Shown piece by piece: positions 1 through 20,050 of a stretch of DNA of 52,654 bases. The notes under the pieces were generated by a model that made no database searches, was not told the origin of the DNA, and saw only the letters and a program-made list of their open reading frames with translations. Position 1 is the first letter of the stretch. Each line of letters begins with the position of its first letter. The stretch lies in IMG/VR virus record IMGVR_UViG_3300048025_000051, positions 1-52,654 of that record, one strand, 5' to 3'. A program made the position numbers and the translations under genes. The DNA is from a virus. Lineage: Duplodnaviria; Caudoviricetes.

Positions 1-1500
1 TCCAGATACTGAGTGCTGTAAAGATTGATAACCTATAGCTGTATTAAAACTTGATCCTGTCTGGTTTTCTAAAACACCCTCTCCTAAACCAACATTGCCT
101 TGTTGTGTTGTATAAGTTAAGCTTTCGCCTATTACTAAGTTTGTACCAGAGTCAGTGTAATCGAACGTTACGCCGCCTCCACCTCCAGTTGCAGTTACTG
201 TAACAGTTCCAGTGCCTTGATCAATAGATATACCTGATCCAGCTACAATTGATGTTACACCTGTATTTTCTAAAGTTAATACAGCAGGTGAAACAGAAGT
301 TAATGTTGATGTGATACCTGTACCTGCTGCAAACTTTAAAACTTCAGCTTCAGTTATAGAAGTTGTTGTTCCAGCGTTGTCTTGAATACTCCAAGAGCTC
401 ATGGTGCCATCACCAGCTCCAGTAGCTCCAGTTGATAATGCTGTTATTCTACCGTAAGCATCTACAGTTATATTATCTATCTTAACATTGTTTGACTGAC
501 TACCATAAGTGCCAGCACCAATACCAGCCGTGTCTAGCGATATAGTTCCGGTGTTTACAATTGGACCACCAGTTAGACCAACGCCCGAATTTACTTGCGT
601 AACTCCGGATGCGCCACCTGATTGTGTAACCCAGTCGTAATCGGAGCCGTCCCAAGAAAGTACTTGAGTTGCTGATGCAGTCGATGTGTTTAAATGATTA
701 TCAACATCTGCGTTTGTATATGCAGTTGGGATAACTGTATCACCTTCTAGTGCTGTACCTGCTGTAGTACCGAAACCTGGGAAAGATACTTTCGCTGTGT
801 TTGCAGATACATTTGTATTTGCACTTACTCTAGCTTCTGTGTAGTATAGGTTTGTACCTTCATTTATATTTGAAGTTGTTAATGACACAGCGCCAGTTAA
901 TCCATTTACTGAAGTTACACTTTGTGTATTGTCAACCTTTTCCCATGCAGTGCCATTTGATATAGCCCAATCACCAATACCATATGTAATACCTAAATAA
1001 GTACCAGGAGCACTAACTACATAATAGAAACCTTGATTAGCTGGAGCGGGTGAAGGTAAAGCAGGTGTGTTTGTGCCTGCGTTCCACGTGCCTTTGTAAA
1101 CTACCGCACCTACTAAAGCATCTGGTATGTATTGTACGTCTACTTTAGTTGAAGAGTTTAATGGAGCATAGCCATTAGCTTGCCCTTTTTCACTAGTGCT
1201 TTGTTTGTTGTTAAATGTTGTCCAATCAGTTGAAGATAAGTAACCATCAGCAGAGCTTGAAGCTTGTGTTATTCCGATGCTACCTGTATCTGTTATTGTT
1301 CCACCTGTTAATGGTGATGTTGCAGTAACGCTTTTAACTGTTCCTGATGTTTGACCAGTTAATATACTGTCCTTTAGCGTTTCGAATGTTATAGAGTTCG
1401 TTTCTAAAGCTCCTACACCACTAGTAGGCGCTACGCTTATTACGAACTGGTCACTGTTTTTGACCGTAGTTTTTAGTGGGTAAGAGTATATAATCGCCAT
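1..1500 (-). CDS. Tail fibre / receptor-binding protein, 3' end outside window (absent from supplied ORF track)
   Basis: ATG at 1500; frame open for 500 codons to the window edge: MAIIYSYPLKTT...YKGTWNAGTNTP...VTSVNGLTGAVSL...ITVDAYGRIT...NTAIGYQSL. Gly/Thr/Ser-rich, with motifs typical of phage fibres. Confidence 0.8.
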   Translation of the reverse strand, partial: MAIIYSYPLKTTVKNSDQFVISVAPTSGVGALETNSITFETLKDSILTGQTSGTVKSVTATSPLTGGTITDTGSIGITQASSSADGYLSSTDWTTFNNKQSTSEKGQANGYAPLNSSTKVDVQYIPDALVGAVVYKGTWNAGTNTPALPSPAPANQGFYYVVSAPGTYLGITYGIGDWAISNGTAWEKVDNTQSVTSVNGLTGAVSLTTSNINEGTNLYYTEARVSANTNVSANTAKVSFPGFGTTAGTALEGDTVIPTAYTNADVDNHLNTSTASATQVLSWDGSDYDWVTQSGGASGVTQVNSGVGLTGGPIVNTGTISLDTAGIGAGTYGSQSNNVKIDNITVDAYGRITALSTGATGAGDGTMSSWSIQDNAGTTTSITEAEVLKFAAGTGITSTLTSVSPAVLTLENTGVTSIVAGSGISIDQGTGTVTVTATGGGGGVTFDYTDSGTNLVIGESLTYTTQQGNVGLGEGVLENQTGSSFNTAIGYQSLQHSVSG

Positions 1501-1529
1501 AGTTTCTTTATAATTCGTTTATAGGTTAT

Positions 1530-1558
1530 ATACTTACAGGTTTCACTATTGTTTTACA
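1530..1558 (-). promoter_or_regulatory. Putative class-II (phage sigma) promoter for the tail-fibre gene
   Basis: TGTAAAAC-N12-TGTAAGTAT, 30 nt upstream of the ATG; nearly identical to the site at 10446-10474. Confidence 0.55.
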
Positions 1559-1574
1559 ATACAAGGTGTATAGT

Positions 1575-1618
1575 GTGACATTAGCCTGTTACTATACTAC
1601 TTATAAGGCTAGTGTCAC
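1575..1618. repeat. 44-bp palindromic site A (13-18-13)
   Basis: GTGACATTAGCCT-N18-AGGCTAGTGTCAC; arms complementary at 12/13; sister copy at 8876-8919. Confidence 0.85.
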
Positions 1619-1666
1619 TAAAAATGACGTTAGATATATTGGAGTATAGTGTTACCCCCTATGTTA

Positions 1667-1763
1667 TTGACAATCAATACGTTACAAAAACGATTTTTAT
1701 TTCACCGGGTCCCCCTTTTTCTCTAGGTTTTTACGTATATACCCTTGATTATCAGTATATTAC
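1667..1763 (+). promoter_or_regulatory. Two IHF-consensus-like boxes (1667-1685, 1745-1763)
   Basis: TTGACAATCAATACGTTAC and TTGATTATCAGTATATTAC both contain WATCARNNNNTTR. Confidence 0.4.
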
Positions 1764-1813
1764 GCCCAACTGTTTGACTTTTTCTCGACATGTACTAACT
1801 AATTTCTAATACT

Positions 1814-1845
1814 TTACAGACAAAACAGTACTCATTGTGGATAAT
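1814..1845 (+). promoter_or_regulatory. Early promoter-like motif, copy 1
   Basis: TTACAGACAAA-N13-TGGATAAT. Confidence 0.75.
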
Positions 1846-1996
1846 ATATATGTAACACAATAACAATAATCACTATGAACTATCTAACTATGTTTACTTC
1901 AAATGAATTACTTAATATGATTAACACTATTAATACACATAATGAAGTGTAGTGTAATACTTCTAACTAATTTTTATACACTAAATAAATATACAC

Positions 1997-2028
1997 TTAC
2001 AAACAAAACAAAACTCAAACTGGATAAT
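1997..2028 (+). promoter_or_regulatory. Early promoter-like motif, copy 2
   Basis: TTACAAACAAA-N13-TGGATAAT upstream of ORF 2065. Confidence 0.8.
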
Positions 2029-2064
2029 ATAATAAACAAATACTAATACTTAAATAATATAACT

Positions 2065-2295
2065 ATGCAAAATTCAATTCAATCAAAACGCTTCGTCATT
2101 CGCAAATCTCTAATAGGTCAAAACTCTATCATTGAAGTCACATTTAAAAATGGCAAAACATTCAAATATAATCACGACAAAGCTTTTCAACTTATGTCTT
2201 CAAACCTTGAACACTTGAACTGTTGGTTAAAATATAACTCTTATACTTCATCAACTTCAATTCCAAAAGTTCTACAAAATGCTGAGGTTATTTAA
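2065..2295 (+). CDS. Hypothetical early protein (76 aa)
   Basis: ORF after promoter motif with A-rich leader; followed by hairpin GAGGTTA/TAACCTC (2284-2303). Confidence 0.7.
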   Translation: MQNSIQSKRFVIRKSLIGQNSIIEVTFKNGKTFKYNHDKAFQLMSSNLEHLNCWLKYNSYTSSTSIPKVLQNAEVI

Positions 2296-2375
2296 TTAAC
2301 CTCTTCATTGAACAAACTAAAACTCGCGCGTTGAAATGTGTACATCACGAGTATAAATAATGTTGAACAGATACA

Positions 2376-2419
2376 AGTCACAATGGTTAATGTGAGTTCG
2401 ATTCTCACTGTGACTACTA
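2376..2419 (+). ncRNA. Mini tRNA-like element 1 (acceptor stem + T arm, no anticodon arm)
   Basis: AGTCACA / ATGGTTAAT / GTGAG-TTCGATT-CTCAC / TGTGACT / A-CTA: perfect 7-bp and 5-bp stems with a canonical T loop; intergenic. Confidence 0.75.
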
Positions 2420-2441
2420 CTAACTTTTTAAAATTACAATT

Positions 2442-2582
2442 ATGACTATTACTAATAAAATACAAAAACTATATAACAAACTAGATTTTCTTCAAGACAA
2501 TGACAGATGGGTTCAATACCGTCAAGTGTACAAAGAAATAACTGAACTAGAAAGATTAAGAGATGAATCATACTCAAACTAA
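2442..2582 (+). CDS. Small hypothetical protein (46 aa, below ORF-track cutoff)
   Basis: MTITNKIQKLYNKLDFLQDNDRWVQYRQVYKEITELERLRDESYSN; A-rich leader; fills the gap. Confidence 0.55.
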   Translation: MTITNKIQKLYNKLDFLQDNDRWVQYRQVYKEITELERLRDESYSN

Positions 2583-2588
2583 TTCGCT

Positions 2589-2729
2589 ATGACTATAGAT
2601 AAAATATACAATGAACTACAGTTAATAAATGAGTTTGAAGCTAATTTCAATATCACTCCACAGTCTAAAACTAGACGTGAAGAACTTACAAACAAATTAC
2701 AACAACTAATGGATAATAATATAAAATAA
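2589..2729 (+). CDS. Small hypothetical protein (46 aa)
   Basis: MTIDKIYNELQLINEFEANFNITPQSKTRREELTNKLQQLMDNNIK; tiles between neighbours on the coding strand. Confidence 0.55.
   Translation: MTIDKIYNELQLINEFEANFNITPQSKTRREELTNKLQQLMDNNIK
2686..2717 (+). promoter_or_regulatory. Early promoter-like motif, copy 3
   Basis: TTACAAACAAA-N13-TGGATAAT upstream of ORF 2732. Confidence 0.8.
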
Positions 2730-2731
2730 TC

Positions 2732-2989
2732 ATGCAATACAGAGATATAAAATATAACTACAGCGAGTGGACTACTCACAATGGTAAAAAAGCAAGTGGT
2801 TATTCATGCGAAGCTTTTAACCAACATCCATACCACGTTCAATCATTCTCAACAGAACTCGAACAAGACATGATAACTCAAATTGATGAGTACATTGACA
2901 ATCGAGATAAGTATGAAGCTCGTCGCGAACAAACAAATAAAGCAGCGAAAGAATTTTATAACTCAATGGGTGAATATAAAGGCGATTAA
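2732..2989 (+). CDS. Hypothetical early protein
   Basis: 85-aa ORF directly after promoter motif. Confidence 0.7.
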   Translation: MQYRDIKYNYSEWTTHNGKKASGYSCEAFNQHPYHVQSFSTELEQDMITQIDEYIDNRDKYEARREQTNKAAKEFYNSMGEYKGD

Positions 2990-2990
2990 T

Positions 2991-3146
2991 ATGAAGAAAG
3001 ATCTATACAAATACCAAAGAGCTAGAAGCATTAGTAAACGTAAGGTTATTGCTAAAATAACTAAAGCTGAAATTGAAGCTATTGAGCGTGAATACTACGA
3101 TAGATTTAACTCAGAACTATCTTCATGGATAATAATTAAACATTAA
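2991..3146 (+). CDS. Hypothetical protein (start re-called to ATG 2991)
   Basis: ATG begins 2 nt after the previous stop; MKKDLYKYQR... Confidence 0.55.
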   Translation: MKKDLYKYQRARSISKRKVIAKITKAEIEAIEREYYDRFNSELSSWIIIKH

Positions 3147-3156
3147 AACCATTACT

Positions 3157-3360
3157 ATGGATAAATATAAATTTTATTTCAATGATGCTACCGTTGATTA
3201 CTATGCCGATTACCAAGACGCAAATGGTTGGGCAGGTACTGCACTTGAAATATACAAGTTCATTGCAGACGAGTGTGAATGGCACGACGAGAGTGATATG
3301 CGAGAACTATACCTCGACTTACTCGAGCAAGTGGAAGATAAAATAATAGAACAGTTATGA
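3157..3360 (+). CDS. Acidic hypothetical early protein
   Basis: 67-aa Asp/Glu-rich ORF; isolated TGGATAAT at 3126-3133 upstream. Confidence 0.65.
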   Translation: MDKYKFYFNDATVDYYADYQDANGWAGTALEIYKFIADECEWHDESDMRELYLDLLEQVEDKIIEQL

Positions 3361-3365
3361 GCAAT

Positions 3366-3397
3366 TTACAAACAAATTACAATATCTTTTGGATAAT
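3366..3397 (+). promoter_or_regulatory. Early promoter-like motif, copy 4
   Basis: TTACAAACAAA-N13-TGGATAAT upstream of ORF 3415. Confidence 0.8.
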
Positions 3398-3414
3398 ATA
3401 ATAAATAACAAACT

Positions 3415-3615
3415 ATGCAAACAATTAAATTCTATAAAAAATACGATACTCATTTAGCTAAACTAGGCGATGTTGAATACAAAGGCTACAATGTTGGCGA
3501 TCTTCCTAACTCATTTGGCTTTATATACAATAAGTCTCGCGATCAAGAAGGTAAATCAAACTGGTTTAACTACAAAGGTTTAACTTACGTTGAAGTAACT
3601 GAACTGCCATGGTAG
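3415..3615 (+). CDS. Hypothetical early protein
   Basis: 66-aa ORF after promoter motif. Confidence 0.7.
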   Translation: MQTIKFYKKYDTHLAKLGDVEYKGYNVGDLPNSFGFIYNKSRDQEGKSNWFNYKGLTYVEVTELPW

Positions 3616-3860
3616 TTAAAACTATGAAAGAACTGCTCAACTATGTTGAAGAGCAAAAGAAGATTCGAGCTGCGGAGCATAGACGCAAGTTCGCGCATCA
3701 CGGTGAATGTGGTGGACTAACTGACAAAGAGTGGAATTCAATCAAACATGGTCAGAAATCTAGTTTTCCAAAAGCTAGAAAGTTCACCCATCACAAGATG
3801 TGGCGCGAAACAGGTAGTAAATATACAGTCGAACAACTAAAACAAATAGCAAAATCATGA
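3609..3860 (+). CDS. Hypothetical basic protein
   Basis: 83-aa ORF overlapping both neighbours in operon style. Confidence 0.65.
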   Translation: MVVKTMKELLNYVEEQKKIRAAEHRRKFAHHGECGGLTDKEWNSIKHGQKSSFPKARKFTHHKMWRETGSKYTVEQLKQIAKS

Positions 3861-4093
3861 GTAAAACGAAAGAACTAGATCTTATAGCGCAGGGCGTTGC
3901 AGATCACTGTAAAGAAATAATGTATGACACTGTCGAATGGCAGATATCAGATCAACCCGTTGACGGTGATGATTTCAACGAGTTACATAGTTATGTAATG
4001 GATTTAGCTATTGAAAAAATGGCTATAGAACTACCTGAATTTAGAAGACTAAACATAGGTGATTACAAACAAAACGAAACAACTACTGGATAA
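3857..4093 (+). CDS. Hypothetical protein
   Basis: 78-aa ORF, ATGA overlap. Confidence 0.65.
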   Translation: MSKTKELDLIAQGVADHCKEIMYDTVEWQISDQPVDGDDFNELHSYVMDLAIEKMAIELPEFRRLNIGDYKQNETTTG

Positions 4094-4094
4094 T
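4063..4094 (+). promoter_or_regulatory. Early promoter-like motif, copy 5
   Basis: TTACAAACAAA-N13-TGGATAAT upstream of ORF 4111. Confidence 0.8.
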
Positions 4095-4110
4095 ATAATA
4101 AACAACAAAT

Positions 4111-4299
4111 ATGTATTGTAGATGCGGAAATACTGTGCACCCAGTGCGAATAGACTTAGGTTACAAAACTTGTGTTGAGTGTTCAACCACTCAAACTTAC
4201 AGCTATGTACCAATCATCGAGCACAAGACAGGCAATACTATTCAAATCGTCAGCCAAGAAGTATCAGCGAGTGTGCACAGAGCTTGGCGACGTAAATAG
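4111..4299 (+). CDS. C4 zinc-finger protein, DksA/TraR-finger-like
   Basis: CRCGNTVHPVRIDLGYKTCVEC resembles the C..CG..I...R......C..C finger pattern. Confidence 0.55.
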   Translation: MYCRCGNTVHPVRIDLGYKTCVECSTTQTYSYVPIIEHKTGNTIQIVSQEVSASVHRAWRRK

Positions 4300-4347
4300 A
4301 CTGTCGCGGTGTGTACTCAGGGAGGAGATGACACCGCAGGTCTAAAT

Positions 4348-4427
4348 GGGCGTGAAATGGTTAGCGCGAACAAAGTTCGAAAGTACACTATTCGCAAACG
4401 CAGGTTCGATTCCTGCCACGTCCACTA
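4348..4427 (+). ncRNA. tRNA-like element 2, resembling an isolated tmRNA tRNA-like domain
   Basis: GGGCGTG/CACGTCC acceptor stem with G3-U70, discriminator A, stemless D loop AAATGGTTAGC, GCGAA/TTCGC helix, AAAC linker, GCAGG-TTCGATT-CCTGC T arm, ends A-CTA. Confidence 0.75.
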
Positions 4428-4429
4428 TA

Positions 4430-4461
4430 TTACAAACAAAATTCATTATCTAATGGATAAT
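4430..4461 (+). promoter_or_regulatory. Early promoter-like motif, copy 6
   Basis: TTACAAACAAA-N13-TGGATAAT upstream of ORF 4472. Confidence 0.8.
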
Positions 4462-4471
4462 ATATACGATT

Positions 4472-4717
4472 ATGACTAAAATTAAAACACTTAAACAACG
4501 GCTTAAACCAGAGGTTAGAGCAAAGCTTGAGTCTAATGACCGTAAATACTCTGCATCAGTGCGCAGTTTATTTATTAAACTAGACAAAACTATCTTTGTT
4601 TCTAGCTTAACATTGGATGATGTTCGCATGCTCCATATATTTTCTAACGATACATATACAGACAAAGACGGATTTGAACTAATGTGGTGCGAGCATATAT
4701 TTGATGACAATGACTGA
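4472..4717 (+). CDS. Hypothetical protein
   Basis: 81-aa ORF after promoter motif. Confidence 0.65.
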   Translation: MTKIKTLKQRLKPEVRAKLESNDRKYSASVRSLFIKLDKTIFVSSLTLDDVRMLHIFSNDTYTDKDGFELMWCEHIFDDND

Positions 4718-4985
4718 TACAACTAAATTACAAGCACACGATAAAGCTTTTGCAAATATGCATCAGTTATCTATCGATATGGCTCAAACCAGACTTCGAC
4801 TAGAAGGCAAGGTGTCAAGTGTATTTGACGAAGAGCAATTACAAACTACATTAGATTCTCAACTAAGAGAATTCGATGCATGGAATTATATAGCAACATT
4901 AATAGAAAAGGATTATGGAAAACACACTTACGTTGATGAAATACTTGGGTATCAACGAGATTACGACTTCGCGGCAGAAGGCTAA
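4710..4985 (+). CDS. Hypothetical protein
   Basis: ORF overlapping previous stop; start uncertain (4704 or 4710). Confidence 0.6.
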   Translation: MTDTTKLQAHDKAFANMHQLSIDMAQTRLRLEGKVSSVFDEEQLQTTLDSQLREFDAWNYIATLIEKDYGKHTYVDEILGYQRDYDFAAEG

Positions 4986-5265
4986 TGGTACAAGAGCTTT
5001 TGAAGCTCCGTTTAAAATACGTAGAAAACCAGTGAGATTTTACTCTTACAAAAGCGGTTACGTAAGAATTGATAGAAACACTCACACATTGTACCAAATA
5101 AACAAGACGTATGACGTTGATTATAAGGTAGTTATGCACAACGGTGAATTTTACCAGTGCAAAAGCCGGCGACGTATGATGATATATAATGAAGAATCTA
5201 GACTAAACTATATTCTAAAGTACATACTAAAAAACTATTTTAAATGGAACAACTATGACAGATAA
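4915..5265 (+). CDS. Hypothetical basic protein
   Basis: 116-aa ORF in operon. Confidence 0.65.
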   Translation: MENTLTLMKYLGINEITTSRQKANGTRAFEAPFKIRRKPVRFYSYKSGYVRIDRNTHTLYQINKTYDVDYKVVMHNGEFYQCKSRRRMMIYNEESRLNYILKYILKNYFKWNNYDR

Positions 5266-5704
5266 TAAATTAAAACTAGACGAAAAGCTCGTGCAGCAAT
5301 TGCTGTCAGAGGATAACGTTACTACCCCTGAAGATACTAGCTTTGCTATTATGCTTGAGCGTACTAAAAACCATTTTGACTTTGAAATAACAAATGGTTG
5401 GGCTAAAAATCCTGACATGCTGTTTTACACAGAGACAACATCTGATGGTTATGAGGTGTGGATAGCAACAGATGACGATAGAAATATATCAATTAATGAA
5501 GACGTATACTATTATGAAAGTGATTGGCTTGAAAAAATGTCTGACGCTATGACAGATGGTTTAACTATTTACTTTCAAGAACTTGAAGATGAAAACTACA
5601 ATTTTGAAGAAGTTGTACAAGATGTATACGAAGAGTACTACAATGATAAAAAACAAGAACTAATTGAAAAGCTAATTGATGACGGATATGAGTGGGAAGA
5701 ATAA
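5255..5704 (+). CDS. Highly acidic hypothetical protein
   Basis: 149 aa, very Asp/Glu-rich. Confidence 0.7.
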   Translation: MTDNKLKLDEKLVQQLLSEDNVTTPEDTSFAIMLERTKNHFDFEITNGWAKNPDMLFYTETTSDGYEVWIATDDDRNISINEDVYYYESDWLEKMSDAMTDGLTIYFQELEDENYNFEEVVQDVYEEYYNDKKQELIEKLIDDGYEWEE

Positions 5705-5963
5705 TAATACAGAACAAAAGCCTCTACCTAAATGGTATGACGGAGCTAAATATACAAAATGGGAAACGGTAACTAACCCGTTTTCAGGTCAATCAGAGTT
5801 GTTATCGCCTAATGAAGTTGCAATGTATGACTTAATTATGGGTTTAACTATGACGCTTGAACGTACAGGTTACAGATCAGAAAGGTTAATGAAAGATCAC
5901 AGGAGAGGTCTTGACTGGTTTAGAGTGGCAAACCCTGAAGCATATATGACTTTGCTAGACTAG
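5688..5963 (+). CDS. Hypothetical phage protein
   Basis: MSGKNNN...VTNPFSGQSELLSPNEVAMYDLIMG...WFRVANPEAYMTLLD; start re-called. Confidence 0.7.
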   Translation: MSGKNNNTEQKPLPKWYDGAKYTKWETVTNPFSGQSELLSPNEVAMYDLIMGLTMTLERTGYRSERLMKDHRRGLDWFRVANPEAYMTLLD

Positions 5964-5970
5964 CAACAAA

Positions 5971-6013
5971 GGACGTAATGGTTAATACAAGTTCGATTCT
6001 TGTACGTCCACTA
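5971..6013 (+). ncRNA. Mini tRNA-like element 3 (acceptor stem + T arm, no anticodon arm)
   Basis: GGACGT(A) / ATGGTTAAT / ACAAG-TTCGATT-CTTGT / ACGTCC / A-CTA; intergenic; same linker, T loop and 3' end as element 1. Confidence 0.72.
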
Positions 6014-6030
6014 ATTTTAAATTAATTATT

Positions 6031-6234
6031 ATGCCTAACATGAGTTATTGCCGGTTTGAAAACACGGTAAACGACATGCAAGATTGTTTAAACGCAATCG
6101 AAGATCGTGAAGTAAACGATCTAAGCAATTACGAAATAAAAGCTTTAAATCATTTTTTAGAGCTAGGTAGAGTTATCGTAGATTACGAAGATGATATTCA
6201 ACAAATTTTAGACAGACACTACCATGATGGATAG
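6031..6234 (+). CDS. Hypothetical phage protein
   Basis: Begins MPNMSYCRFENT, an N-terminus I recall from other phage proteins. Confidence 0.7.
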   Translation: MPNMSYCRFENTVNDMQDCLNAIEDREVNDLSNYEIKALNHFLELGRVIVDYEDDIQQILDRHYHDG

Positions 6235-6421
6235 AGATAAACATATATGGGAAGGTTGGACAGTCGGTGACTTCATTGACGATATAGAACCTATGTTTGA
6301 TAGGTGTGCTCCATTTATGGACAAGCAAAGTCTTAAACGTTGGGTTGCACAAGAACAACCTTATTACAAGAAACATACACCAGAAGTATACAATTACTTT
6401 TTAAAAAAATCAGGATTATGA
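6224..6421 (+). CDS. Hypothetical protein
   Basis: 65-aa ORF in operon (IWEGWTVGDFI). Confidence 0.65.
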   Translation: MMDRDKHIWEGWTVGDFIDDIEPMFDRCAPFMDKQSLKRWVAQEQPYYKKHTPEVYNYFLKKSGL

Positions 6422-6552
6422 AGACAATTAAACTAACAGAAGGCGACGCGATCTTTGTTCACTATGTACTACGCCAATACGCTGATCAAACAGCAGGGCT
6501 AGACAGTGAAGACAAGATAGAAATCTATGACGTCGCAGCTAAATTTAAATAA
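6418..6552 (+). CDS. Small hypothetical protein (start re-called)
   Basis: ATGA overlap at 6418; MKTIKLTEGD... Confidence 0.6.
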   Translation: MKTIKLTEGDAIFVHYVLRQYADQTAGLDSEDKIEIYDVAAKFK

Positions 6553-6553
6553 T

Positions 6554-6997
6554 ATGGCAACAAGAAACTTAACAATGGTTGTTGATCGCGAGCACGCGGA
6601 AAAGCACAAGGAAGGCTTTGCAGCTAATCCTAGTAACTTTACTGACAATAGCTATGTAAATATGTACTTACACCATGATGGTTATCCTGAGTTTCAGGGC
6701 GTACAAATAGCTAATTGGGTGCATACTAACGGCAGACAAGACGGTAGTGCGATGGCAGCGAAGCTAGTTCATGACATGTACTATGACAGTTGCTACTTAT
6801 ATCCATTACCAGATGCGATAGATCACCAATATACTTATATTATTTGGTCAGGTAAAAAAGATATATGGATCAGTTGTTATGACAATTACAACAGTGAAAA
6901 TGTATTTGTACTAACGCCTGCTAAAGTAATATCACGTTATATGTCTGATTATGAGTACACTGATTTCGCTAACAATGAAACTAGATATAATGACTAA
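6554..6997 (+). CDS. Hypothetical phage protein with YxHxDGYP motif
   Basis: MATR...YLHHDGYP; function unknown. Confidence 0.75.
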   Translation: MATRNLTMVVDREHAEKHKEGFAANPSNFTDNSYVNMYLHHDGYPEFQGVQIANWVHTNGRQDGSAMAAKLVHDMYYDSCYLYPLPDAIDHQYTYIIWSGKKDIWISCYDNYNSENVFVLTPAKVISRYMSDYEYTDFANNETRYND

Positions 6998-7235
6998 AAA
7001 AGAACTAGATTACGTAGCTGAAAAAGTAGCTGACGCTATAGTTGAAAAACTATTTAATTCAGAAAACTTTGAAGTTTCGTCTATGCCATCTGCAACAGAT
7101 GAGCAAATGATTATAGCTGAAGTAGCAAGACTTATGACCCTACTGTCACAATATGAAGAGTCAGAAGAGTATGAAAAAGCTGCTATTATACAAAACAAAA
7201 TAACTAAATTAGAAAAAATACTTAAAAAATTATGA
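6990..7235 (+). CDS. Hypothetical protein with UVR-like helical C-terminus
   Basis: EEYEKAAIIQNKI resembles the UvrB/C coiled-coil motif. Confidence 0.6.
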   Translation: MTKKELDYVAEKVADAIVEKLFNSENFEVSSMPSATDEQMIIAEVARLMTLLSQYEESEEYEKAAIIQNKITKLEKILKKL

Positions 7236-8107
7236 TAAAACCAATGCTAGCGCATAAAGTAAGTGAGAACAGAATTGATTTCTCAGAGAAGGTTTTTATA
7301 CAACCTAAACTCGACGGTGTGCGCTGTCTAATTAAAAGAGTATCAGACTTTCCTGGTCAAGAGAACTTAGCATCCTTCAGTGTAAAAGCTTACTCACGAA
7401 CAGGTAAAGAATTTAAAAACGTTAGGCATATTACAAATGCTTTGAAAGGATTTTTCTTGCATAATCCTGACGTAGTGCTTGATGGTGAGTTGTATAATCA
7501 CGATCTAAGAGACGATTTCGAACAAATCATATCATTGGTCAGAAAACAAAAACCGACTGACGAGGATCGTCTAAACGCGCACAGACTAATACAATACCAC
7601 GTATACGATATGATAGCTGAAGGTCCTAGTTACGAAGACAGACTTAACTGGCTGTTGTCAAGTAAAAATCTATGGTCAGACTCGGTTATACATGTTTTAA
7701 CCCTTGGTGTTAGCAAGTATGAAGAAGCTGCTAACGTACACTACGATGGCTTTTTAAAACAAGGTTACGAAGGTTCTATATTAAGACTAAACGGTCCGTA
7801 CGAGCAAAAACGTAGCTACAATTTACAAAAATTCAAAGACTTCAGTGACACCGAAGCTACTATTATTGGCTATGAAGCTGGTAAAGGTAAGTTTACAGGT
7901 CTTATCGGTAAGTTTTTTATGGTAGATGATGATGGTAACGAGTTCGGTTGTCCAATCGGTAAAGGTTACAACTACTCTGATCGTCGTTACATACTAGATA
8001 ACATTCACGATTACATTGGTAAAGTAGCTACATTTACGTACTTCGAGCGTACTAAAGCTGGTAGTTACAGACATCCGTTGTATAAAACATTACGTAACTA
8101 TGAGTGA
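7232..8107 (+). CDS. ATP-dependent DNA ligase
   Basis: QPKLDGVR (KxDG), LDGELY, YHVYD, GYEGSILR, LQKFK motifs; C-terminal OB-fold region. Confidence 0.93.
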   Translation: MIKPMLAHKVSENRIDFSEKVFIQPKLDGVRCLIKRVSDFPGQENLASFSVKAYSRTGKEFKNVRHITNALKGFFLHNPDVVLDGELYNHDLRDDFEQIISLVRKQKPTDEDRLNAHRLIQYHVYDMIAEGPSYEDRLNWLLSSKNLWSDSVIHVLTLGVSKYEEAANVHYDGFLKQGYEGSILRLNGPYEQKRSYNLQKFKDFSDTEATIIGYEAGKGKFTGLIGKFFMVDDDGNEFGCPIGKGYNYSDRRYILDNIHDYIGKVATFTYFERTKAGSYRHPLYKTLRNYE

Positions 8108-8237
8108 TTCTTTGGCAGATAGATATTTTAATATAATAAAAAAACAAATTAAAGATGAGCAAACTTATTTGGAAGCTATACGCTCAAAACATGATAAGCG
8201 AAGAGGTAGCAAATATCTTACTAGATAAATTATACGA

Positions 8238-8738
8238 ATGAATATATTTTATCTAGACAAAGATCCTTATAAAGCTGCTAGTCATTTTTACGACAAGCAC
8301 AAGGTTAAAATGATACTGGAATCCGCTCAAATACTCTGTACGGCTCACCATGTTTACGGTAATTCTGACGATGTGCCTTATAAACAAGCACACCTGAACC
8401 ATCCGTCTACAATATGGGCTAGACAGAGTAAGCCAAACTATTATTGGCTATATGAGCACATGATAGCATTAGGGCAAGAGTACACAAAACGCTATGGCAA
8501 AGTACATATGTCAATAGATAAATGCAAAGATGCATTACGCTTTTGTCCTGATGGTATTGAATCTGTAGTATTTACAGAACCACCACAATGTATGCCTGAT
8601 GAATATAAAGTTGAAGGCGACAGTGTAACAGCGTATTGGAATTATTATGAACAAGATAAATATAAAATAGCAAATAAAAATGAGCAAATTATTATACGAC
8701 CACATGATGTCAACAAACTATATGAATTTAGCGCATAA
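8238..8738 (+). CDS. Pyrimidine-dimer DNA glycosylase-like protein
   Basis: MNIFYLD...DKHKVKMILESAQILCTAH...HLNHPSTIW...EYTKRYGKVH...PQCMPD family pattern. Confidence 0.75.
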   Translation: MNIFYLDKDPYKAASHFYDKHKVKMILESAQILCTAHHVYGNSDDVPYKQAHLNHPSTIWARQSKPNYYWLYEHMIALGQEYTKRYGKVHMSIDKCKDALRFCPDGIESVVFTEPPQCMPDEYKVEGDSVTAYWNYYEQDKYKIANKNEQIIIRPHDVNKLYEFSA

Positions 8739-8875
8739 GGTTAAATCATTAAAAAAAGTTAAGCAAAAACCTAAAAAAAATGGGAAAAACTAAAGAATTG
8801 TTTAATAAATTAAGAGAACAAGAAGAATTTTTAAAAGAACATATTATTATATGTACTTTAAAACCAGAAGGGACT

Positions 8876-8919
8876 GTGACAACAGCCCCTAATAATAACT
8901 AGTAATAGGCTAATGTCAC
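8876..8919. repeat. 44-bp palindromic site B (13-18-13) covering the start codon of ORF 8913
   Basis: GTGACAACAGCCC-N18-AGGCTAATGTCAC; ATG 8913 lies in the right arm. Confidence 0.8.
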
Positions 8920-9533
8920 AAGATAGAAATTTAAGTTTGTTAAATAAACACCGCATCGTCTATAGAAGAGGTACTATAAACGATAAGCCAGATCAAGTGT
9001 ATGACTGGGGTGATGTTTATCTAAATGGCACTCATGAATGTTATGAACTATTTAGAACTAAAGCTAAAATTACTACATACAAATCTCTTAAGTGGCATTT
9101 GCTTGTTATATGGTATTTAAACCCGCAGTTAGATCAAGATAAGTTTGAATTTATTGCGACGCATATAGTAAACAAAGACAATGGATTTGTAACATTTTCT
9201 GTTTCAGAACAGTTGTTTAAAAATATAATTTATGATGTTAGCATGTTTGATCTTGAACAACCTCCAAGAAACAAACTAAGAAAAGTTATATTTAAAGATA
9301 ATTGTAAATTATCTGTTACAGAAAAACTAAGTATAGTTGGTCAAATTATAGGTAGATCAAAAGGTGTAACGCCAGATGATATATACGATGCTATGTTATC
9401 AATAAACGAAACACAAGAAAAGATAACAATAAGTAAATTAGCAAAGTATCATAACTGTTCAACTAGAACTATTCACAGAAGTATGACACAAGAATTAAAG
9501 AAAGAAAAAGAACTTTTAAACTCACAATTATGA
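8913..9533 (+). CDS. DNA-binding protein with C-terminal HTH (regulator or replication initiator candidate)
   Basis: ITISKLAKYHNCSTRTIHRSM helix-turn-helix pattern. Confidence 0.6.
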   Translation: MSQDRNLSLLNKHRIVYRRGTINDKPDQVYDWGDVYLNGTHECYELFRTKAKITTYKSLKWHLLVIWYLNPQLDQDKFEFIATHIVNKDNGFVTFSVSEQLFKNIIYDVSMFDLEQPPRNKLRKVIFKDNCKLSVTEKLSIVGQIIGRSKGVTPDDIYDAMLSINETQEKITISKLAKYHNCSTRTIHRSMTQELKKEKELLNSQL

Positions 9534-9685
9534 AATATCCAGATGCAGATAAACACTTTTGGGCTAGTATGACAAAGAGTGTTATAAGAGTAGCAGGCTA
9601 TTGTCTTATACCTTTTAATATTTGGCTAGCCGCTACTATATTAATTATATCAGAAGCCGTAGGAATTATAGAAGAAACAGTATGA
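9530..9685 (+). CDS. Small membrane protein (51 aa, not in ORF track)
   Basis: MKYPDADKHFWASMTKSVIRVAGYCLIPFNIWLAATILIISEAVGIIEETV; ATGA overlaps at both ends. Confidence 0.65.
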   Translation: MKYPDADKHFWASMTKSVIRVAGYCLIPFNIWLAATILIISEAVGIIEETV

Positions 9686-10437
9686 AAAAGTACAATGTAC
9701 AGAACTACATAAGGTATAAAGAAGATGTTAAAAAGTCTATGCCTGTACAAGCGTCTTACGATAGCTATTCAAGAGAAGAACTAGTTGTAAAGTTTCTTCC
9801 TCTTGTAGAAAATTTAGCACGTAAGTTTTCAACAACTCAACAAGCTTCAGGTGTATTAAGTATTAATGACTTAATTCAAATTGGAGCTGAAGGTTTAATT
9901 AAAGCTGTTGATAAATTAACATGGGAAAAACTAAATGAGTCTGAAGATATTGAAAAAACTTTAAAATCATTTTTTAGTAAACGTGTTAAAGGTGCTATAC
10001 GTAGACGAATTGATATGCACAGAGGTGATATACGTATTCCAGAGCATAAGATAAACGAAATACGTAACAACCCTAAAGATAAAAAAATGGTTGAAATGTT
10101 TTTCAACTCTGTGTTTTTATCAATAGATGCTCAACCTACTAATGATGAAGGTGAGCAAATGATACATCAAATAGCAGACAGATCAGAGCCATACAACATA
10201 GCTTTGTTAAATAGTTATTTGAAAAGCTTATTGTTAAAACATCTTAGTAACAAAGAATATGAGGTGTTACGATTAAGCTACGGACTTGACTGCGATAAAC
10301 ATTCAGCTAAGCAAATCGCAGCTAAATTAAATATAGATGGAGTTAGTAATTATGTTCGTGTAAGCGAGCTAAAAAAGCAAGCGGTACAGAAATTAATTGA
10401 CAACGTTGATCACTCACAAGTGATTGACTATCTGTAA
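9682..10437 (+). CDS. Phage sigma-70-family RNA polymerase sigma factor (start re-called to ATG 9682)
   Basis: Region 2 (FLPLVENLARKF...DLIQIGAEGLIKAVDK), IRIP, region 4 HTH (EYEVLRLSYGL...SAKQIAAKL...RVSELKKQAVQKL). Confidence 0.9.
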   Translation: MKKYNVQNYIRYKEDVKKSMPVQASYDSYSREELVVKFLPLVENLARKFSTTQQASGVLSINDLIQIGAEGLIKAVDKLTWEKLNESEDIEKTLKSFFSKRVKGAIRRRIDMHRGDIRIPEHKINEIRNNPKDKKMVEMFFNSVFLSIDAQPTNDEGEQMIHQIADRSEPYNIALLNSYLKSLLLKHLSNKEYEVLRLSYGLDCDKHSAKQIAAKLNIDGVSNYVRVSELKKQAVQKLIDNVDHSQVIDYL

Positions 10438-10445
10438 GTTACTTG

Positions 10446-10474
10446 TGTAAAACTATATTTTTATGTGTAATTAT
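10446..10474 (+). promoter_or_regulatory. Putative class-II (phage sigma) promoter for the replication module
   Basis: TGTAAAAC-N12-TGTAATTAT immediately downstream of the sigma gene. Confidence 0.55.
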
Positions 10475-10500
10475 ATTAATAAGTAAATACCAATATACCT

Positions 10501-11052
10501 ATGAAACTAAATGAAAAGCTGGCTACTATCCAGACTAAGTTTAAATCGAAAAAAAGTAGGTTTAACTCATTCGGCAAATACAACTTCCGATCAGCCGAAG
10601 ACATTCTTGAAGCAACTAAACCCTATCTATTAGAGTTAGGAGTATCAGTTAAGATTGATGAGACAATCATTTCAACTGAACCAATGCCTATTGTAGAAAG
10701 TAAAGCTACAATATCTGATGGTGATAACAGTATTAATGCAACAGCATTAGTAGGCGTTGATCTAAATCAGAAAGGTATGCAAACTCCACAGCAGTTTGGT
10801 TCAGCTTCAAGTTATGGGAAGAAATATGCATTAGGTAATTTATTCCTAATAGACGATACGCAAGACTCAGATGCGTCTAATACTCACGGAAAGACCGTAA
10901 GTAAATCTAAACAGAAGCTTGATACAGGTACTGATGCTTTTAAGAAAGCAGTTGATTATATCAAAGCTGGTGGCTCAATTAAAGCTATCAACTCTAAGTA
11001 CGATGTGTCTGTTAAAGCTATAGCAGAACTTAAGAATTATGAACGAGGATAA
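10501..11052 (+). CDS. erf: ERF-family ssDNA annealing protein
   Basis: FNSFGKYNFRSAEDIL and GSASSYGKKYAL motifs. Confidence 0.88.
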   Translation: MKLNEKLATIQTKFKSKKSRFNSFGKYNFRSAEDILEATKPYLLELGVSVKIDETIISTEPMPIVESKATISDGDNSINATALVGVDLNQKGMQTPQQFGSASSYGKKYALGNLFLIDDTQDSDASNTHGKTVSKSKQKLDTGTDAFKKAVDYIKAGGSIKAINSKYDVSVKAIAELKNYERG

Positions 11053-11767
11053 GATAATCGATAAGCTAAGAAACGATGAAGATTACTACGGTGATTTTGG
11101 CAAGAAGTATCTTAGCAACTCTGACATATCAACTCTTTTAAGTAACCCTTTAGCTTTAGGTAAAAAGTTAAAACAATCACCGGCGTTTTTAATTGGTGGT
11201 TATTTTCACACTGCTATACTTGAACCTGATAAATTAAAAAACTTTAAAATAGTTGAATCAACAAGTAGAAATACTAAAGCATATAAAGAAATATCAGGTG
11301 GAGAAATGCTGTTGCTACAGTCTGAAGTTGACATGATCGAACTGATGACAGATAAGATTTTATCAAACGATGTTTGCGAAGGTCTTATAAGAGGTAACTG
11401 CGATTACGAGACACCTGGTATTGGTGAGATTGAAAATGAATTATGGAAAGGTAAAGCTGATATATTGAATCACGATGAAAAACTTATCATTGATTTGAAG
11501 ACTACAGCAGATCTTAACAAGTTTAGATGGTCAGCATCTAAATATAATTATGACAGTCAAGCTTATATATACCAAAAGTTATTTGGTTACGAGATGTTGT
11601 TTATTGCAATAGATAAAACAACACATCAAATTGGGATGTTTGATTGCTCACCTGAATTTTTACAGCGTGGTGCTGACAAAGTTAAGAGAGCAGTAGAACA
11701 ATATCAATTATTTTATCAACAAGAAGGTTTTGATCCTTCACAATTTTTTATTAACGAAACCCTTTAA
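11039..11767 (+). CDS. PD-(D/E)XK exonuclease (RecE/ExoVIII-like)
   Basis: LSNSDI, GGYFHTAILEP, KGKADIL...IIDLKTT, YDSQAYIY; adjacent to ERF. Confidence 0.85.
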   Translation: MNEDKIIDKLRNDEDYYGDFGKKYLSNSDISTLLSNPLALGKKLKQSPAFLIGGYFHTAILEPDKLKNFKIVESTSRNTKAYKEISGGEMLLLQSEVDMIELMTDKILSNDVCEGLIRGNCDYETPGIGEIENELWKGKADILNHDEKLIIDLKTTADLNKFRWSASKYNYDSQAYIYQKLFGYEMLFIAIDKTTHQIGMFDCSPEFLQRGADKVKRAVEQYQLFYQQEGFDPSQFFINETL

Positions 11768-11777
11768 ACCAATTAAT

Positions 11778-11957
11778 ATGGCACGAGCTAGAAAAAATCA
11801 AACTAAAGTTTGTACAGTAACAGGAGTTGAAACAAGTGTAAACAATTTTTACGCTAATCAAAACCATGTTAAAGCAGTAGATAATCTACGACGCAATAGC
11901 AACGCTACTAAAGATCAGTTGCAGCGCATGTTTAATCAAATTAATAACTACGCATAA
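11778..11957 (+). CDS. Small hypothetical protein (start re-called)
   Basis: MARARKNQTKVCTVTG... Confidence 0.6.
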   Translation: MARARKNQTKVCTVTGVETSVNNFYANQNHVKAVDNLRRNSNATKDQLQRMFNQINNYA

Positions 11958-12274
11958 TGGCAAGTATTATAGCAACAAGTATTGACCTTACTAAAATTCC
12001 TAAGGATAAAATTATTCCAGGTAAGAAAGGTAAATACCTACCTATTACTATTACAATCAATGATGAAGCAGATCAGTTTGGAAATCAAGGTCCTGTAATC
12101 GTACAGCAAACTAAAGAAGAACGTGAAGCTAAAGTTGATAAAGTTTATTTAGGTAATGTAAAAGTAGTATGGACAAACGGAGACAATGTAGCTGCTGCTC
12201 AGCGAGATGGTGGGGCTGCACCTGTACAACAAGCTGCGTCAATTCCAGCAGCTAATGATGACCTGCCCTTCTAA
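11957..12274 (+). CDS. ssb: Single-stranded DNA-binding protein
   Basis: Acidic C-terminal DDLPF tail; located in recombination/replication cluster. Confidence 0.7.
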   Translation: MASIIATSIDLTKIPKDKIIPGKKGKYLPITITINDEADQFGNQGPVIVQQTKEEREAKVDKVYLGNVKVVWTNGDNVAAAQRDGGAAPVQQAASIPAANDDLPF

Positions 12275-12363
12275 TGCCACTTTGTGAAATATGTAATGAG
12301 AATATGTCGCAGGAAGATCACGACTACTGCGACATATGTCCTAAGTGTTTAGAAGATTGGTAA
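12274..12363 (+). CDS. 29-aa Cys-rich zinc-finger microprotein
   Basis: MPLCEICNENMSQEDHDYCDICPKCLEDW; TAATG overlap with ssb. Confidence 0.55.
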   Translation: MPLCEICNENMSQEDHDYCDICPKCLEDW

Positions 12364-12381
12364 TAAATTAAATTAAATTAA

Positions 12382-14094: not shown

Positions 14095-14363
14095 TGCCTC
14101 CTTATAAGCAAGCTAAGAAGTCAGCTTGGAGTATGGGCAAGTATGAAGCTACAGATGAAGACTGGAAGGCTATGCGATGGTGTATAAACAACGGTATAAC
14201 AATAGCACCATTTGCTAAAGAGCCAGGTTCTTGGTATATCGATATAACAGTAAACGGTAAAACAAATCGATCACCTCATATTTATATTAGAGATATGATA
14301 TGGGAGAAGATCTATGAATATTATAGATATTATTATGAGAAATACTTTCGAGACAGCAAATGA
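14094..14363 (+). CDS. Hypothetical protein
   Basis: 89-aa ORF, TAATG overlap. Confidence 0.7.
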   Translation: MPPYKQAKKSAWSMGKYEATDEDWKAMRWCINNGITIAPFAKEPGSWYIDITVNGKTNRSPHIYIRDMIWEKIYEYYRYYYEKYFRDSK

Positions 14364-14976
14364 AGCTTATGAGTATATGCACAACGAAATCATTACAAAT
14401 GGTGTTGAGTTTGCAGGTACCAAAGCTTTATTTAATATAGGGTTTACAATAGAGAACCCAACAAACAAAGTAATTACAAACAAAGAGCGTAACTGGAATG
14501 AAGAGTACGCAGCTGCAGAGTGGCAATGGTATTTATCTGGTGATCCTAAAATTAAAAAACTAGGTGAGCTATACGGTAAGATACCACCGATATGGAAACG
14601 CATGGCCAATGAAGACGGCGAGGTCAACTCTAATTATGGTTATCAATGGAAACGACATGAGCAATATGAAAAAGTTATATACATGTTAAGATCAAATCCT
14701 GAAACCAGACAAGCTGCTATTAGTATATATGACGGCAAAGAAATACACAAGTACAGTAATGATACACCATGTACGTACGCAGTACAGTTTACAATAGTAC
14801 AAGGCAAACTGTATATGTCTGTCTATATGCGTTCTAATGATCTTTGGTACGGTTTCTGTAATGATCAGTATCAGTTTGCATCATTGCAAGAAATGGTTGC
14901 AGAGAGATTAAATTTGCCTGTTGGCACATACTACCATCACGCACACAACTTACATTTGTATAACGATAAAATATAA
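14335..14976 (+). CDS. Thymidylate-synthase-family enzyme, probably dCMP hydroxymethylase or methylase
   Basis: Catalytic PC (DTPCT); MRSNDLWYGFCND with Asp at the dCMP-specificity position; NLHLY. Confidence 0.8.
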   Translation: MRNTFETANEAYEYMHNEIITNGVEFAGTKALFNIGFTIENPTNKVITNKERNWNEEYAAAEWQWYLSGDPKIKKLGELYGKIPPIWKRMANEDGEVNSNYGYQWKRHEQYEKVIYMLRSNPETRQAAISIYDGKEIHKYSNDTPCTYAVQFTIVQGKLYMSVYMRSNDLWYGFCNDQYQFASLQEMVAERLNLPVGTYYHHAHNLHLYNDKI

Positions 14977-14981
14977 AACCA

Positions 14982-16465: not shown

Positions 16466-16585
16466 CAAGGCGTAAGTACGCTGAAAGACAGATAGATAAG
16501 TTTACTAAATGGTCTATTGAACAACGTGGTTTTTTAAAGTACAAAGATCTAGTTGAACAACAAGACAAATATAATATAAATATAA

Positions 16586-20049: not shown

Positions 20050-20050
20050 T

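Follow-up and report, generated by a model that had tools for sequence, protein, structure and literature searches.

Anticodon-Less tRNA-Like Elements in the Early Region of a Marine Phage: A Family of Top-Half RNAs Including a Candidate Tag-Less Mini-tmRNA

Introduction

The closest described counterpart of the RNAs treated here comes from the transfer-messenger RNA (tmRNA) literature, where it is listed as “Mycobacterium phage DS6A (TLD only)” (Hudson, Lau and Williams, 2014, PMC4131195; tmRNA Website tmID 11587). According to that paper, and likewise to the 2025 tmRNA database paper, the DS6A molecule is little more than the transfer RNA (tRNA)-like domain (TLD) of a tmRNA (PMC4131195; PMC11915505). 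A molecule of this kind, whether chargeable or not, is described there as a strong inhibitor of tmRNA, perhaps acting by titration of SmpB (PMC4131195, citing Mao et al., 2009). The database paper also reports plastid tmRNAs of ~65 bp devoid of a coding sequence (CDS) and mitochondrial tmRNAs devoid of the tag (PMC11915505). Another related case is the t-elements of plant mitochondria, with which the idea of tRNA punctuation is connected (Forner et al., 2007, PMC1920247). In this article, three elements, E1, E2, and E3, are described from the IMG/VR virus record IMGVR_UViG_3300048025_000051, a stretch of 52,654 bases estimated to be 82% complete, which is called “the window” as a whole.

E1–E3 represent a family that is real, widespread, and unannotated, and the mechanism put forward below for it is testable but proposed. 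E2 is of a kind already published, that of phage DS6A, while E1 and E3 are a smaller variant for which no description was found: in the literature searched, nothing was met on ~40-nucleotide (nt) anticodon-less phage RNAs made of acceptor and T arm, although TLD-only molecules of phages might appear in the tables of PMC11915505.

Three Elements with the Top Half of a tRNA

E1 is a 44-nt top-half mini on the + strand (2376–2419), located between the open reading frames (ORFs) 2065–2295 and 2442–2582. It is composed of AGTCACA (2376–2382), the linker ATGGTTAAT (2383–2391), the T arm GTGAG-TTCGATT-CTCAC (2392–2408), TGTGACT (2409–2415), the discriminator A (2416), and CTA (2417–2419). Its acceptor stem has 7 base pairs (bp) and its linker 9 nt; the third acceptor pair is U3:A70, and D stem, anticodon arm, and G3:U70 are all absent. 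E3, a 43-nt mini on the + strand (5971–6013) between ORFs 5676–5963 and 6031–6234, is built from GGACGT (5971–5976), A plus ATGGTTAAT (5977–5986), ACAAG-TTCGATT-CTTGT (5987–6003), ACGTCC (6004–6009), A (6010), and CTA (6011–6013), with a 6-bp acceptor that carries A3:U70 and no G3:U70. E2 occupies 4348–4427 of the + strand, between ORFs 4111–4299 and 4472–4717, as a 77-nt RNA followed by the CTA trailer. Its 5′ part reads GGGCGTG (4348–4354), the D-loop analog AAATGGTTA (4355–4363), GC, the short helix GCGAA/TTCGC closing 20 nt (4366–4395), and AAAC, and its 3′ part reads GCAGG-TTCGATT-CCTGC (4400–4416), CACGTCC (4417–4423), the discriminator A (4424), and CTA (4425–4427). The 7-bp acceptor GGGCGTG/CACGTCC includes the wobble pair G3:U70, and 45 nt separate the acceptor 5′ strand from the T arm. 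That is, E2 is the frame of E1 and E3 with 36 extra bases between GGTTA and the T arm.

A linker start A-N-GGTTA, a 5-bp T stem, the loop TTCGATT, the discriminator A, and CTA are common to all three elements. All are intergenic and codirectional with the flanking + strand ORFs, and they end 20–47 nt before the next start codon. Minimum-energy folding of the + strand yields the acceptor and T helices in each case, with z-scores that are modest for these single sequences (E1 -1.95, E2 -3.04, E3 -1.79). Three exact copies of GTTCGATTC are present in the window, all of them in E1–E3 and on the + strand, and neither a full covariance-model scan nor a top-half scanner (see below) found a fourth copy on either strand of the window. 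The self-scores in the covariance model, 62 bits for E1 and 52 bits for E3, are circular, both elements being in the model.

A sequence-only reading of this DNA had placed three elements of common architecture at these positions and had described E1 and E3 as RNAs of only 43–44 nt without D stem or anticodon arm; direct reading of the letters bears out the positions, the parts, and the missing arms. The same reading expected standard tRNA finders to overlook the elements. Indeed, ARAGORN predicts no tRNA or tmRNA gene in the window, and Rfam at gathering scores gives no match there. In a permissive scan, E1 scores 22.2 bits with the Rfam tRNA model RF00005 (cut-off 29), with the model positions of both arms deleted. 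Judged by D arm, anticodon arm, and RF00005 score, E1–E3 are not canonical cloverleaf tRNAs; what they have is the top half of one, namely acceptor plus T stem of 7+5 bp (E1), 7+5 bp (E2), and 6+5 bp (E3), a 7-nt T loop (UUCRANY), and a discriminator. They do not look like intrinsic terminators either, since at none of them does a T run come straight after a G+C-rich hairpin.

E2 as a Tag-Less Mini-tmRNA

In the permissive scan, E2 matches the Rfam tmRNA model RF00023 end-to-end with 37.8 bits (E 8.4e-13; cut-off 47), 20 nt standing in place of the central 312 model positions. In four Bacteroidota genomes, this model gives at most 25.9 bits for tRNA-sized matches, vs. 129–145 bits for the real tmRNAs. 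Relatives of the window were collected as 79 related loci with 10-kb flanks, which were retrieved via the DNA ligase gene (7232–8107) and have many early genes in synteny with the window. Three of these loci (L172, L138, and L140) harbor tag-less elements of ~80 nt that score 64–65 bits with RF00023, vs. the cut-off of 47. The one in L172 starts 10 nt past the homolog of gene 4111–4299, i.e., in the same slot as E2. The three begin GGGGGTGA..GGTTTTGAC, with a D-loop analog as in flavobacterial tmRNAs, GGGGTCGA.CGGTTTTGAC. In most close relatives, the homolog of gene 4111–4299 is followed by an element of the E2 type, GGGCGTG-AAATGGTTAG-insert-AACGCAGG-TTCGATT-CCTGC-CACGTCC-A-CTA, whose inserts are ~36–153 nt long.

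The G3:U70 pair is the textbook determinant for alanyl-tRNA synthetase. It is kept in 41 of the 47 elements with G1G2/C71C72, in which the adjacent pair 4:69 is C:G (30), G:C (10), U:A (5), A:U (1), or U:G (1). That the wobble is retained amid covarying neighbors speaks for selection on the wobble as such. With respect to RF00023, E2 alone among the three elements has the TLD (acceptor, stemless D-loop analog, and T arm) together with G3:U70; the mRNA-like domain with resume codon, tag reading frame, and pseudoknots is absent from it, and ARAGORN calls no tmRNA. These features agree with the definition of a TLD-only (CDS-less) tmRNA of the DS6A type, and E2 is, as far as its sequence tells, a TLD-only mini-tmRNA homologous to the tRNA-like domain of tmRNA. 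The earlier assignment of the three elements to one family holds, but E2 is more than a longer copy: it corresponds to the tRNA-like domain of tmRNA without the mRNA part and has G3:U70. The E3 acceptor (GGACGT/ACGTCC) is one base off the E2 type (GGGCGT./.ACGTCC), and the L123 ortholog has that G. E3 can be read as an E2-type frame that lost its insert and, in this phage, the wobble, and E1 as a second insert-less frame with an acceptor of its own.

A Phage Family of Sense-Strand RNA Structures

A pattern of the 16 fixed bases of linker and T loop, in which ten stem positions were left free, was searched in viral contigs and in bacterial and archaeal genomes. Among the matches listed, the T stem pairs 5/5 in 112 of 121 cases from viral contigs, and 5/5 along with an acceptor of at least 6/7 in 108 of 121 (106 of 119 when the window's own two are excluded); for bacterial and archaeal genomes, the respective numbers are 9 and 6 of 119. 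The six structured bacterial cases are mostly on short contigs of metagenome bins. Since the fixed bases leave the stems free and yet the viral stems pair, the fold is not a by-product of the motif. The viral matches comprise at least 73 distinct sequences, 60 of them structured, with many different stems. Among the matches listed, the family is thus essentially a phage family, nearly absent from cellular genomes.

In an alignment of the 60 structured rows (A1), 80.7% of the cells are paired, a figure that, like the shuffle controls, is partly circular, the rows having been picked for pairing. Within the rows so selected, both-side changes are seen at four of five T-stem pairs and at all seven acceptor pairs. 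The pattern counts given above and the wobble counts that follow are free of this selection. For a symmetrically chosen set of 65 distinct sequences, the ratio of G·U to A·C is 16:1 in the T stems and 9:0 in the acceptor stems (25:1 in total), which fits a fold of sense-strand RNA, not duplex DNA. Furthermore, of 58 distinct elements, 50 have more ORF cover within 1.5 kb on their own strand and 5 have more on the opposite one, while 3 have none on either. On this comparative evidence, E1–E3 are to be regarded as one family of selected sense-strand RNA structures. Selection on RNA structure, which the sequence-only reading had deduced from the three window copies, is thereby supported on a wider basis, since the stems covary both in the relatives and in over 100 viral contigs.

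About 40 of the viral matches listed (subgroup L003–L120) carry one near-identical mini with the acceptor GATAGT/(A or G)CTATC, the T stem TAAGG/CCTTA, the same linker, and the tail A-CTAAAA. Their contigs are ~28–105 kb long and come mostly from one metagenome; this subgroup is taken to be a separate phage lineage.

Slots and Their Contents in Related Loci

From the minis, a covariance model (R1) was built and run on the relatives. It gives 25 matches in the related loci, all on the early-gene strand, with conserved copies and compensatory stems. The top-half scanner looks for a T arm, a 6–7-bp acceptor, and GG in the linker, and demands perfect 6-bp acceptor pairing. It reports 108 elements on the early-gene (+) strand and 9 on the other in the 79 loci, counts that include true tRNAs and a few false calls inside tRNAs (e.g., L138 9710). 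Of the 108 early-strand elements, 85 have the discriminator A, after which CTA follows in 73, CAA in 18, and CCA in 5. At least one element is present in 49 of the 79 loci: a mini (linker up to 16 nt) in 26, an insert-bearing G3:U70 form in 35, and both in 21.

The E1 slot is anchored by the early gene upstream of E1 (2065–2295, + strand, 76 amino acids), homologs of which occur in 42 of the 79 loci. E1 orthologs follow this homolog in L126, L127, L129, L168, L164, and L122; in these orthologs the acceptor stays AGTCACA/(T or C)GTGACT, and the T stems change compensatorily (GTGAG/CTCAC, AGTGG/CCACT, and GTAGG/CCTAC). Linker variants of the E1 type are AATGGTTAAT, AAAGGTTAAT, AACGGTTAAT, and ...GGTTAGT, the GG being invariant. 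In L121, the slot holds the E1 frame with a 7-bp hairpin inserted after GGTTA. A second mini type with the linker TTGGAGCAGAGG is found in the E1 slot of other relatives (L132 5304–5346, L137 5733–5775, L148 2905–2947, L171 5318–5360, and L186 5375–5417), also with compensatory T stems (TGTGT/ACACA, TGGGT/ACCCA, and TAGGT/ACCTA). Upstream of E1, the block 2322–2372 is kept in the E1 slot of L126, L127, L129, L132, L134, L155, and L158; it contains an inverted repeat around GCGTTGA..TGTGT and then TATAAATAA-GTTGAAC. No stable RNA fold was found at 2318–2375 (z +0.82), and the block may function as a promoter or be bound by a protein.

The E3 slot is more varied. Its anchor is the early gene 5676–5963 (+ strand), whose stop codon ends 7 nt before E3 and which has homologs in 32 of the 79 loci; the gene on the other side (6031–6234, + strand, ATG 20 nt past the E3 discriminator) is found in 21 of the 79 and belongs to PHROG 8760, of unknown function. 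The slot contains an E3-type mini in L126 and L123, the L123 copy having GGGCGT and G3:U70, and a mini with a different linker in L147. The mini of L126 and L123 is also present in L127, where no homolog of gene 5676–5963 was found. In L125, L129, L137, L161, and L168, it is occupied by insert-bearing forms whose acceptors belong to the GGGCG(T/C)G / C(A/G)CGTCC type (those of L125 and L168 start with A). Genuine tRNAs are found there as well: tRNA-Gln(UUG) in L121, L122, and L140, and tRNA-Met(CAU) in L155, L156, and L158. In many other relatives, the slot is empty. Five of the six genuine tRNAs are followed by A-CTA, the tRNA-Gln of L140 by CAA, so the CTA tail is the usual tRNA 3′ trailer of the clade and is not specific to the minis.

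The anchor of the E2 slot is the early gene 4111–4299 (+ strand), which encodes a 62-amino-acid protein with four cysteines (CxC...CxxC) and has homologs in 41 of the 79 loci. The protein is the best-conserved early one, with up to 97% identity in the relatives L121–L186, and belongs to no Pfam or PHROG family. A top-half RNA with G3:U70 lies within 700 nt after its gene on the same strand in 31 of the 41 loci, and 31 of 35 loci with the RNA have the protein. The protein may be a partner of the E2-type RNA, or this may be plain conserved synteny. Between the gene and the RNA, relatives have an extra 100–200 nt of conserved non-coding sequence (L126 3183–3380, L127 7420–7590, L155 7288–7466, L158 7354–7563, L168 6232–6400, and L123 7032–7135) that starts with GGCGGCGGCATACTGGTCA and finishes with CCAGTCCGTAACTGCTGCC. 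A separate tRNA-like element ends in ...GAGG-TTCGAAT-CCTCA-CTAGTTA-CAAA; the counterpart in the window is just a 7-bp hairpin (4306–4337). The sequences of the relatives look like further structured RNAs. Directly after the four-cysteine gene of L153, ARAGORN calls a 186-nt “tmRNA” (7725–7910) with the tag ERTEVYYIC*. What is called here is an E2-type frame whose insert measures 153 nt, and the tag call is doubtful because the Rfam gathering score for tmRNA is not reached.

Proposed Excision from Early Transcripts and Competition for SmpB

The best overall explanation, to which we give slightly less than even confidence, is that the elements are excised like pre-tRNAs and that E2 competes for SmpB. 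To the host tRNA machinery, the elements in the early transcripts would pass for pre-tRNAs. Cleavage by RNase P would fall at 2375/2376, 4347/4348, and 5970/5971, the CUA trailer would be lost after 2416, 4424, and 6010 through RNase Z or trimming, and the CCA-adding enzyme would complete the 3′ ends, with release of RNAs of ~40 nt and ~77 nt. As a by-product of excision, the early message would be cut 20–47 nt ahead of the next start codon, a punctuation effect. Once freed and alanine-charged, E2 would bind to SmpB in competition with the host tmRNA, resulting in less trans-translation, in line with the report on a TLD-only RNA (Mao et al., 2009, as cited in PMC4131195). E1 and E3, which would not be alanylatable, may either add to the competition, inhibition being reported to work without charging, or serve just as cut sites. 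A role of E2 beyond that of a cut site is argued because the alanine determinant is conserved. CCA in a trailer blocks RNase Z; here, the trailer is CUA, without CCA. RNase Z is found above the cut-off in three of four Bacteroidota genomes, and SmpB and tmRNA in all four.

Several points weigh against this explanation. The four Bacteroidota genomes are stand-ins for the host, reached via chance pattern matches, and not known hosts. The RF00023 score of E2 (37.8 bits) lies below the cut-off of 47, and its junction reads UAGC...AAAC, vs. UUGAC...GGAC in host-type tmRNAs, because of which its binding to SmpB may be weak. The best Rfam match of E1 is tRNA (22.2 bits), not tmRNA; E1 and E3 have neither G3:U70 nor a helix below the elbow, and G:U is present at the columns matching 3:70 in just 3 of the 60 A1 minis. 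Many relatives have empty slots, so the elements are dispensable, and the gain for a lytic phage from blocking ribosome rescue is not obvious. Finally, the RNA-library evidence (X15–X18) consists of assembled contigs of relatives, which cannot show RNA ends.

Six RNA runs contain parts of 1600–8100, all as contigs, and X15–X18 list no positions at which RNAs begin or end. Single contigs stop at 2377 (X17) and at 4425 (X18), maybe as assembly breaks, and a contig of X15 bridges E1 (1838–2470). The bin 4204–4420, which covers most of E2, has the top summed depth in X16 (255.5, vs. 74.2 and 27.8 beside it) and stands out likewise in X17 (92.1, vs. 20.5 and 7.5 beside it); these depths are per contig, summed over relatives, and are no measure of expression.

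Alternative Explanations

The elements might act purely in cis, as tRNA-shaped signals for RNase P and RNase Z in the early polycistronic RNA, with released pieces that have no job of their own. Their intergenic and codirectional position 20–47 nt before the next start codon suits such punctuation, as do the interchange of mini, insert-bearing form, and real tRNA in one slot across relatives and the CTA trailer common to real tRNAs; the t-elements provide a published precedent (PMC1920247). A cut signal, however, needs no alanine determinant, and yet G3:U70 is present in 41 of the 47 E2-type elements; unrelated phages have a strongly conserved linker in common, and many relatives have no element at all in the slot. 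An action confined to cis is regarded as rather unlikely. Alternatively, the RNAs could be decoys for acceptor/T-arm binders other than SmpB, such as toxins directed to tRNA 3′ ends, defense proteins with SmpB-like domains, or EF-Tu. The near confinement of the family to viral contigs, the several copies per genome, and the wide variation of the acceptor stems, as for a generic bait, speak for such decoys, and SmpB-like domains are reported from predicted RNA-targeting CoCoNuT restriction systems (PMC10542128). With no defense or anti-defense gene linked to the elements here, and with flanking proteins that have no family, this role looks improbable. The sequence-only reading had offered mRNA punctuation and released decoys as alternatives, and the elements may act in either way or in both.

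Decay is another way in which such elements could arise, E1–E3 then being remnants of tRNAs or tmRNAs without present function. The sequence-only reading had named intact tRNAs at these sites in relatives as a sign of decay, and tRNA-Gln and tRNA-Met are indeed present in the E3 slot; elements are also absent from many relatives, and E3 lost the G3:U70 that its L123 ortholog keeps. The step from these tRNAs to the minis as decayed pseudo-tRNAs, however, does not stand, because the stems of E1 and E3 are unlike those of the same-slot tRNA-Gln or tRNA-Met and the mini design with its invariant GG recurs in unrelated phages. Pairing of the stems is maintained by compensatory changes, conservation of the GG linker and T loop extends to phage lineages that are unrelated, and random deletion would not repeatedly give the same 9–10-nt linker, all of which makes decay very improbable. 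Least credence of all is given to signals at the level of DNA or transcription, i.e., intrinsic terminators, promoter hairpins, and attachment or recombination sites, which seem scarcely credible. Genes for tRNA and tmRNA are common integration sites, and in the RNA-library contigs cassette differences adjoin the elements (2423 joined directly to 2588; replacement of 5960–6029). On the other hand, none of the three terminator-like sites in 1500–7300 is at an element, 9 nt separate the stem of E1 from the T run that follows, and the 25:1 excess of G·U over A·C fits one RNA strand. Of the gene, just the 3′ part is normally found in an attP, but both acceptor strands are present here, and no integrase was seen among the proteins scanned.

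Source Phage and Its Early Region

DNA of the window is present in marine and seawater metagenomes. Small early genes and replication genes occupy the + strand from ~1,500 to 21,000, and structural genes, including those for the portal, the large terminase, and a 2,782-amino-acid protein, are on the - strand. In a tblastn search with the large terminase, identity is 46% to the closest cultured phages, which infect Flavobacterium (elemo), Cellulophaga, Tenacibaculum, and Maribacter, and 62.6% to an uncultured record; the window phage is thus placed, by this protein, among relatives of phages of Flavobacteriaceae. Against the GenBank phage collection, megablast of 1–12000 and blastn of 2300–6100 gave no matches, and the DNA ligase query gave only distant ones, without flavobacterial relatives. 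On two records from the phage groups nearest by terminase, MW202828.1 and NC_055854.1, model R1 had no match in a search without a positive control. An SmpB gene was not found in the window, which represents a record 82% complete, and no integrase turned up among the window proteins scanned. The proteins flanking E1–E3 belong to no informative Pfam or PHROG family, and the product of gene 2065–2295 has no Pfam or PHROG match.

A motif, GGATAATATAATAAA, is found just 5′ of early genes on the + strand, with six matches vs. 0.27 expected. Exact copies are at 2022–2036, 3391–3405, and 4088–4102, and copies with one mismatch at 2711–2725, 5260–5274, and 20044–20058, all on the + strand; an A-rich box (ACAAACAAA...) often lies ~12 nt further 5′. 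The motif looks like an early promoter class. A looser copy (4454–4468, + strand) lies between E2 and gene 4472–4717, because of which E2 may close a short transcription unit. Strain variants in the RNA libraries (X16 and X17) differ by cassettes adjoining the elements. One variant jumps from 2423 to 2588 and misses gene 2442–2582, the jump beginning 4 nt past the E1 tail; in another, 5960–6029 (the E3 slot) is replaced. In this mosaic early region, joints of recombination may lie at the tRNA-like elements. In the 2,782-amino-acid ORF (21681–30029, - strand), residues 1926–2107 are polynucleotide-kinase-like (PHROG 415, E 1.6e-06), and a 271-amino-acid early protein (9622–10437, + strand) gives weak matches to sigma-70 region 2 and region 4, both below their cut-offs.

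Implications and Comparison with Known Systems

If the above is true, marine flavobacterial phages, and many others, carry small RNA genes invisible to annotation pipelines, and these top-half RNAs would draw on tRNA maturation as well as on ribosome rescue, both of them core systems of the host. RNAs of the E2 type would extend the single published tag-less mini-tmRNA of a phage to a large uncultured marine clade, and the selected alanine determinant would make phage interference with trans-translation directly testable. The 43–44-nt minis would mark the lower size limit of natural RNAs in which acceptor stem, T arm, and elbow-forming GG are all retained, and the interchange of minis and real tRNAs in one slot would be a natural experiment on the requirements of tRNA processing. 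A covariance model of the top-half family would improve the annotation of phage genomes.

A broader but improbable conjecture is that minis, TLD-only mini-tmRNAs, and insert-bearing forms make up one continuous, phage-specific kit of “top-half” RNAs. The constant frame of acceptor, T arm, and GG would ensure excision by the host, CCA-tailing, and stabilization, and the space of the anticodon arm would be empty (E1 and E3), hold a stub as SmpB bait (E2), or hold payload hairpins (relatives). Empty frames would serve as trans baits for binders of the elbow and acceptor end, defense proteins with SmpB-like domains included, and the four-cysteine protein would possibly be a phage-made partner of the E2-type RNA.

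Compared with the genuine tRNAs of sister phages, tRNA-Gln(UUG) and tRNA-Met(CAU), the elements are alike in acceptor, T arm with UUCGAUU, discriminator A, CTA trailer, and slot, but they have no D stem or anticodon arm, ARAGORN finds none of them, and E1 has 22.2 bits vs. 29 with RF00005. Other phage-encoded stable RNAs with tRNA-like ends are T4 species 1 and 2 and T5 RNA1–3, which are longer than 100 nt; to our knowledge, no decoding role is known for them. The likeness of E2 to the DS6A molecule, in which neither has a tag reading frame or pseudoknots, is one of description. The two differ in host group, E2 being from a marine phage of Flavobacteriaceae type and DS6A being an actinophage. 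E2 is also distinguished by its score below the Rfam cut-off and junction motifs unlike those of host tmRNA, by its place in an early operon after the conserved 62-amino-acid four-cysteine gene, and by the company of the smaller E1 and E3, without helix stub and G3:U70, a company not described for DS6A in the text available. With the t-elements, E1–E3 have in common a tRNA-like fold at an mRNA border, codirectional with the genes; the t-elements are non-decoding folds at such borders that are thought to direct cuts by RNase P and/or RNase Z (PMC1920247). Unlike t-elements, E1–E3 come from a phage in bacteria and not from an organelle, and they share a minimal design of 6–7-bp acceptor, 9–10-nt GG linker, and canonical T arm across many phages.

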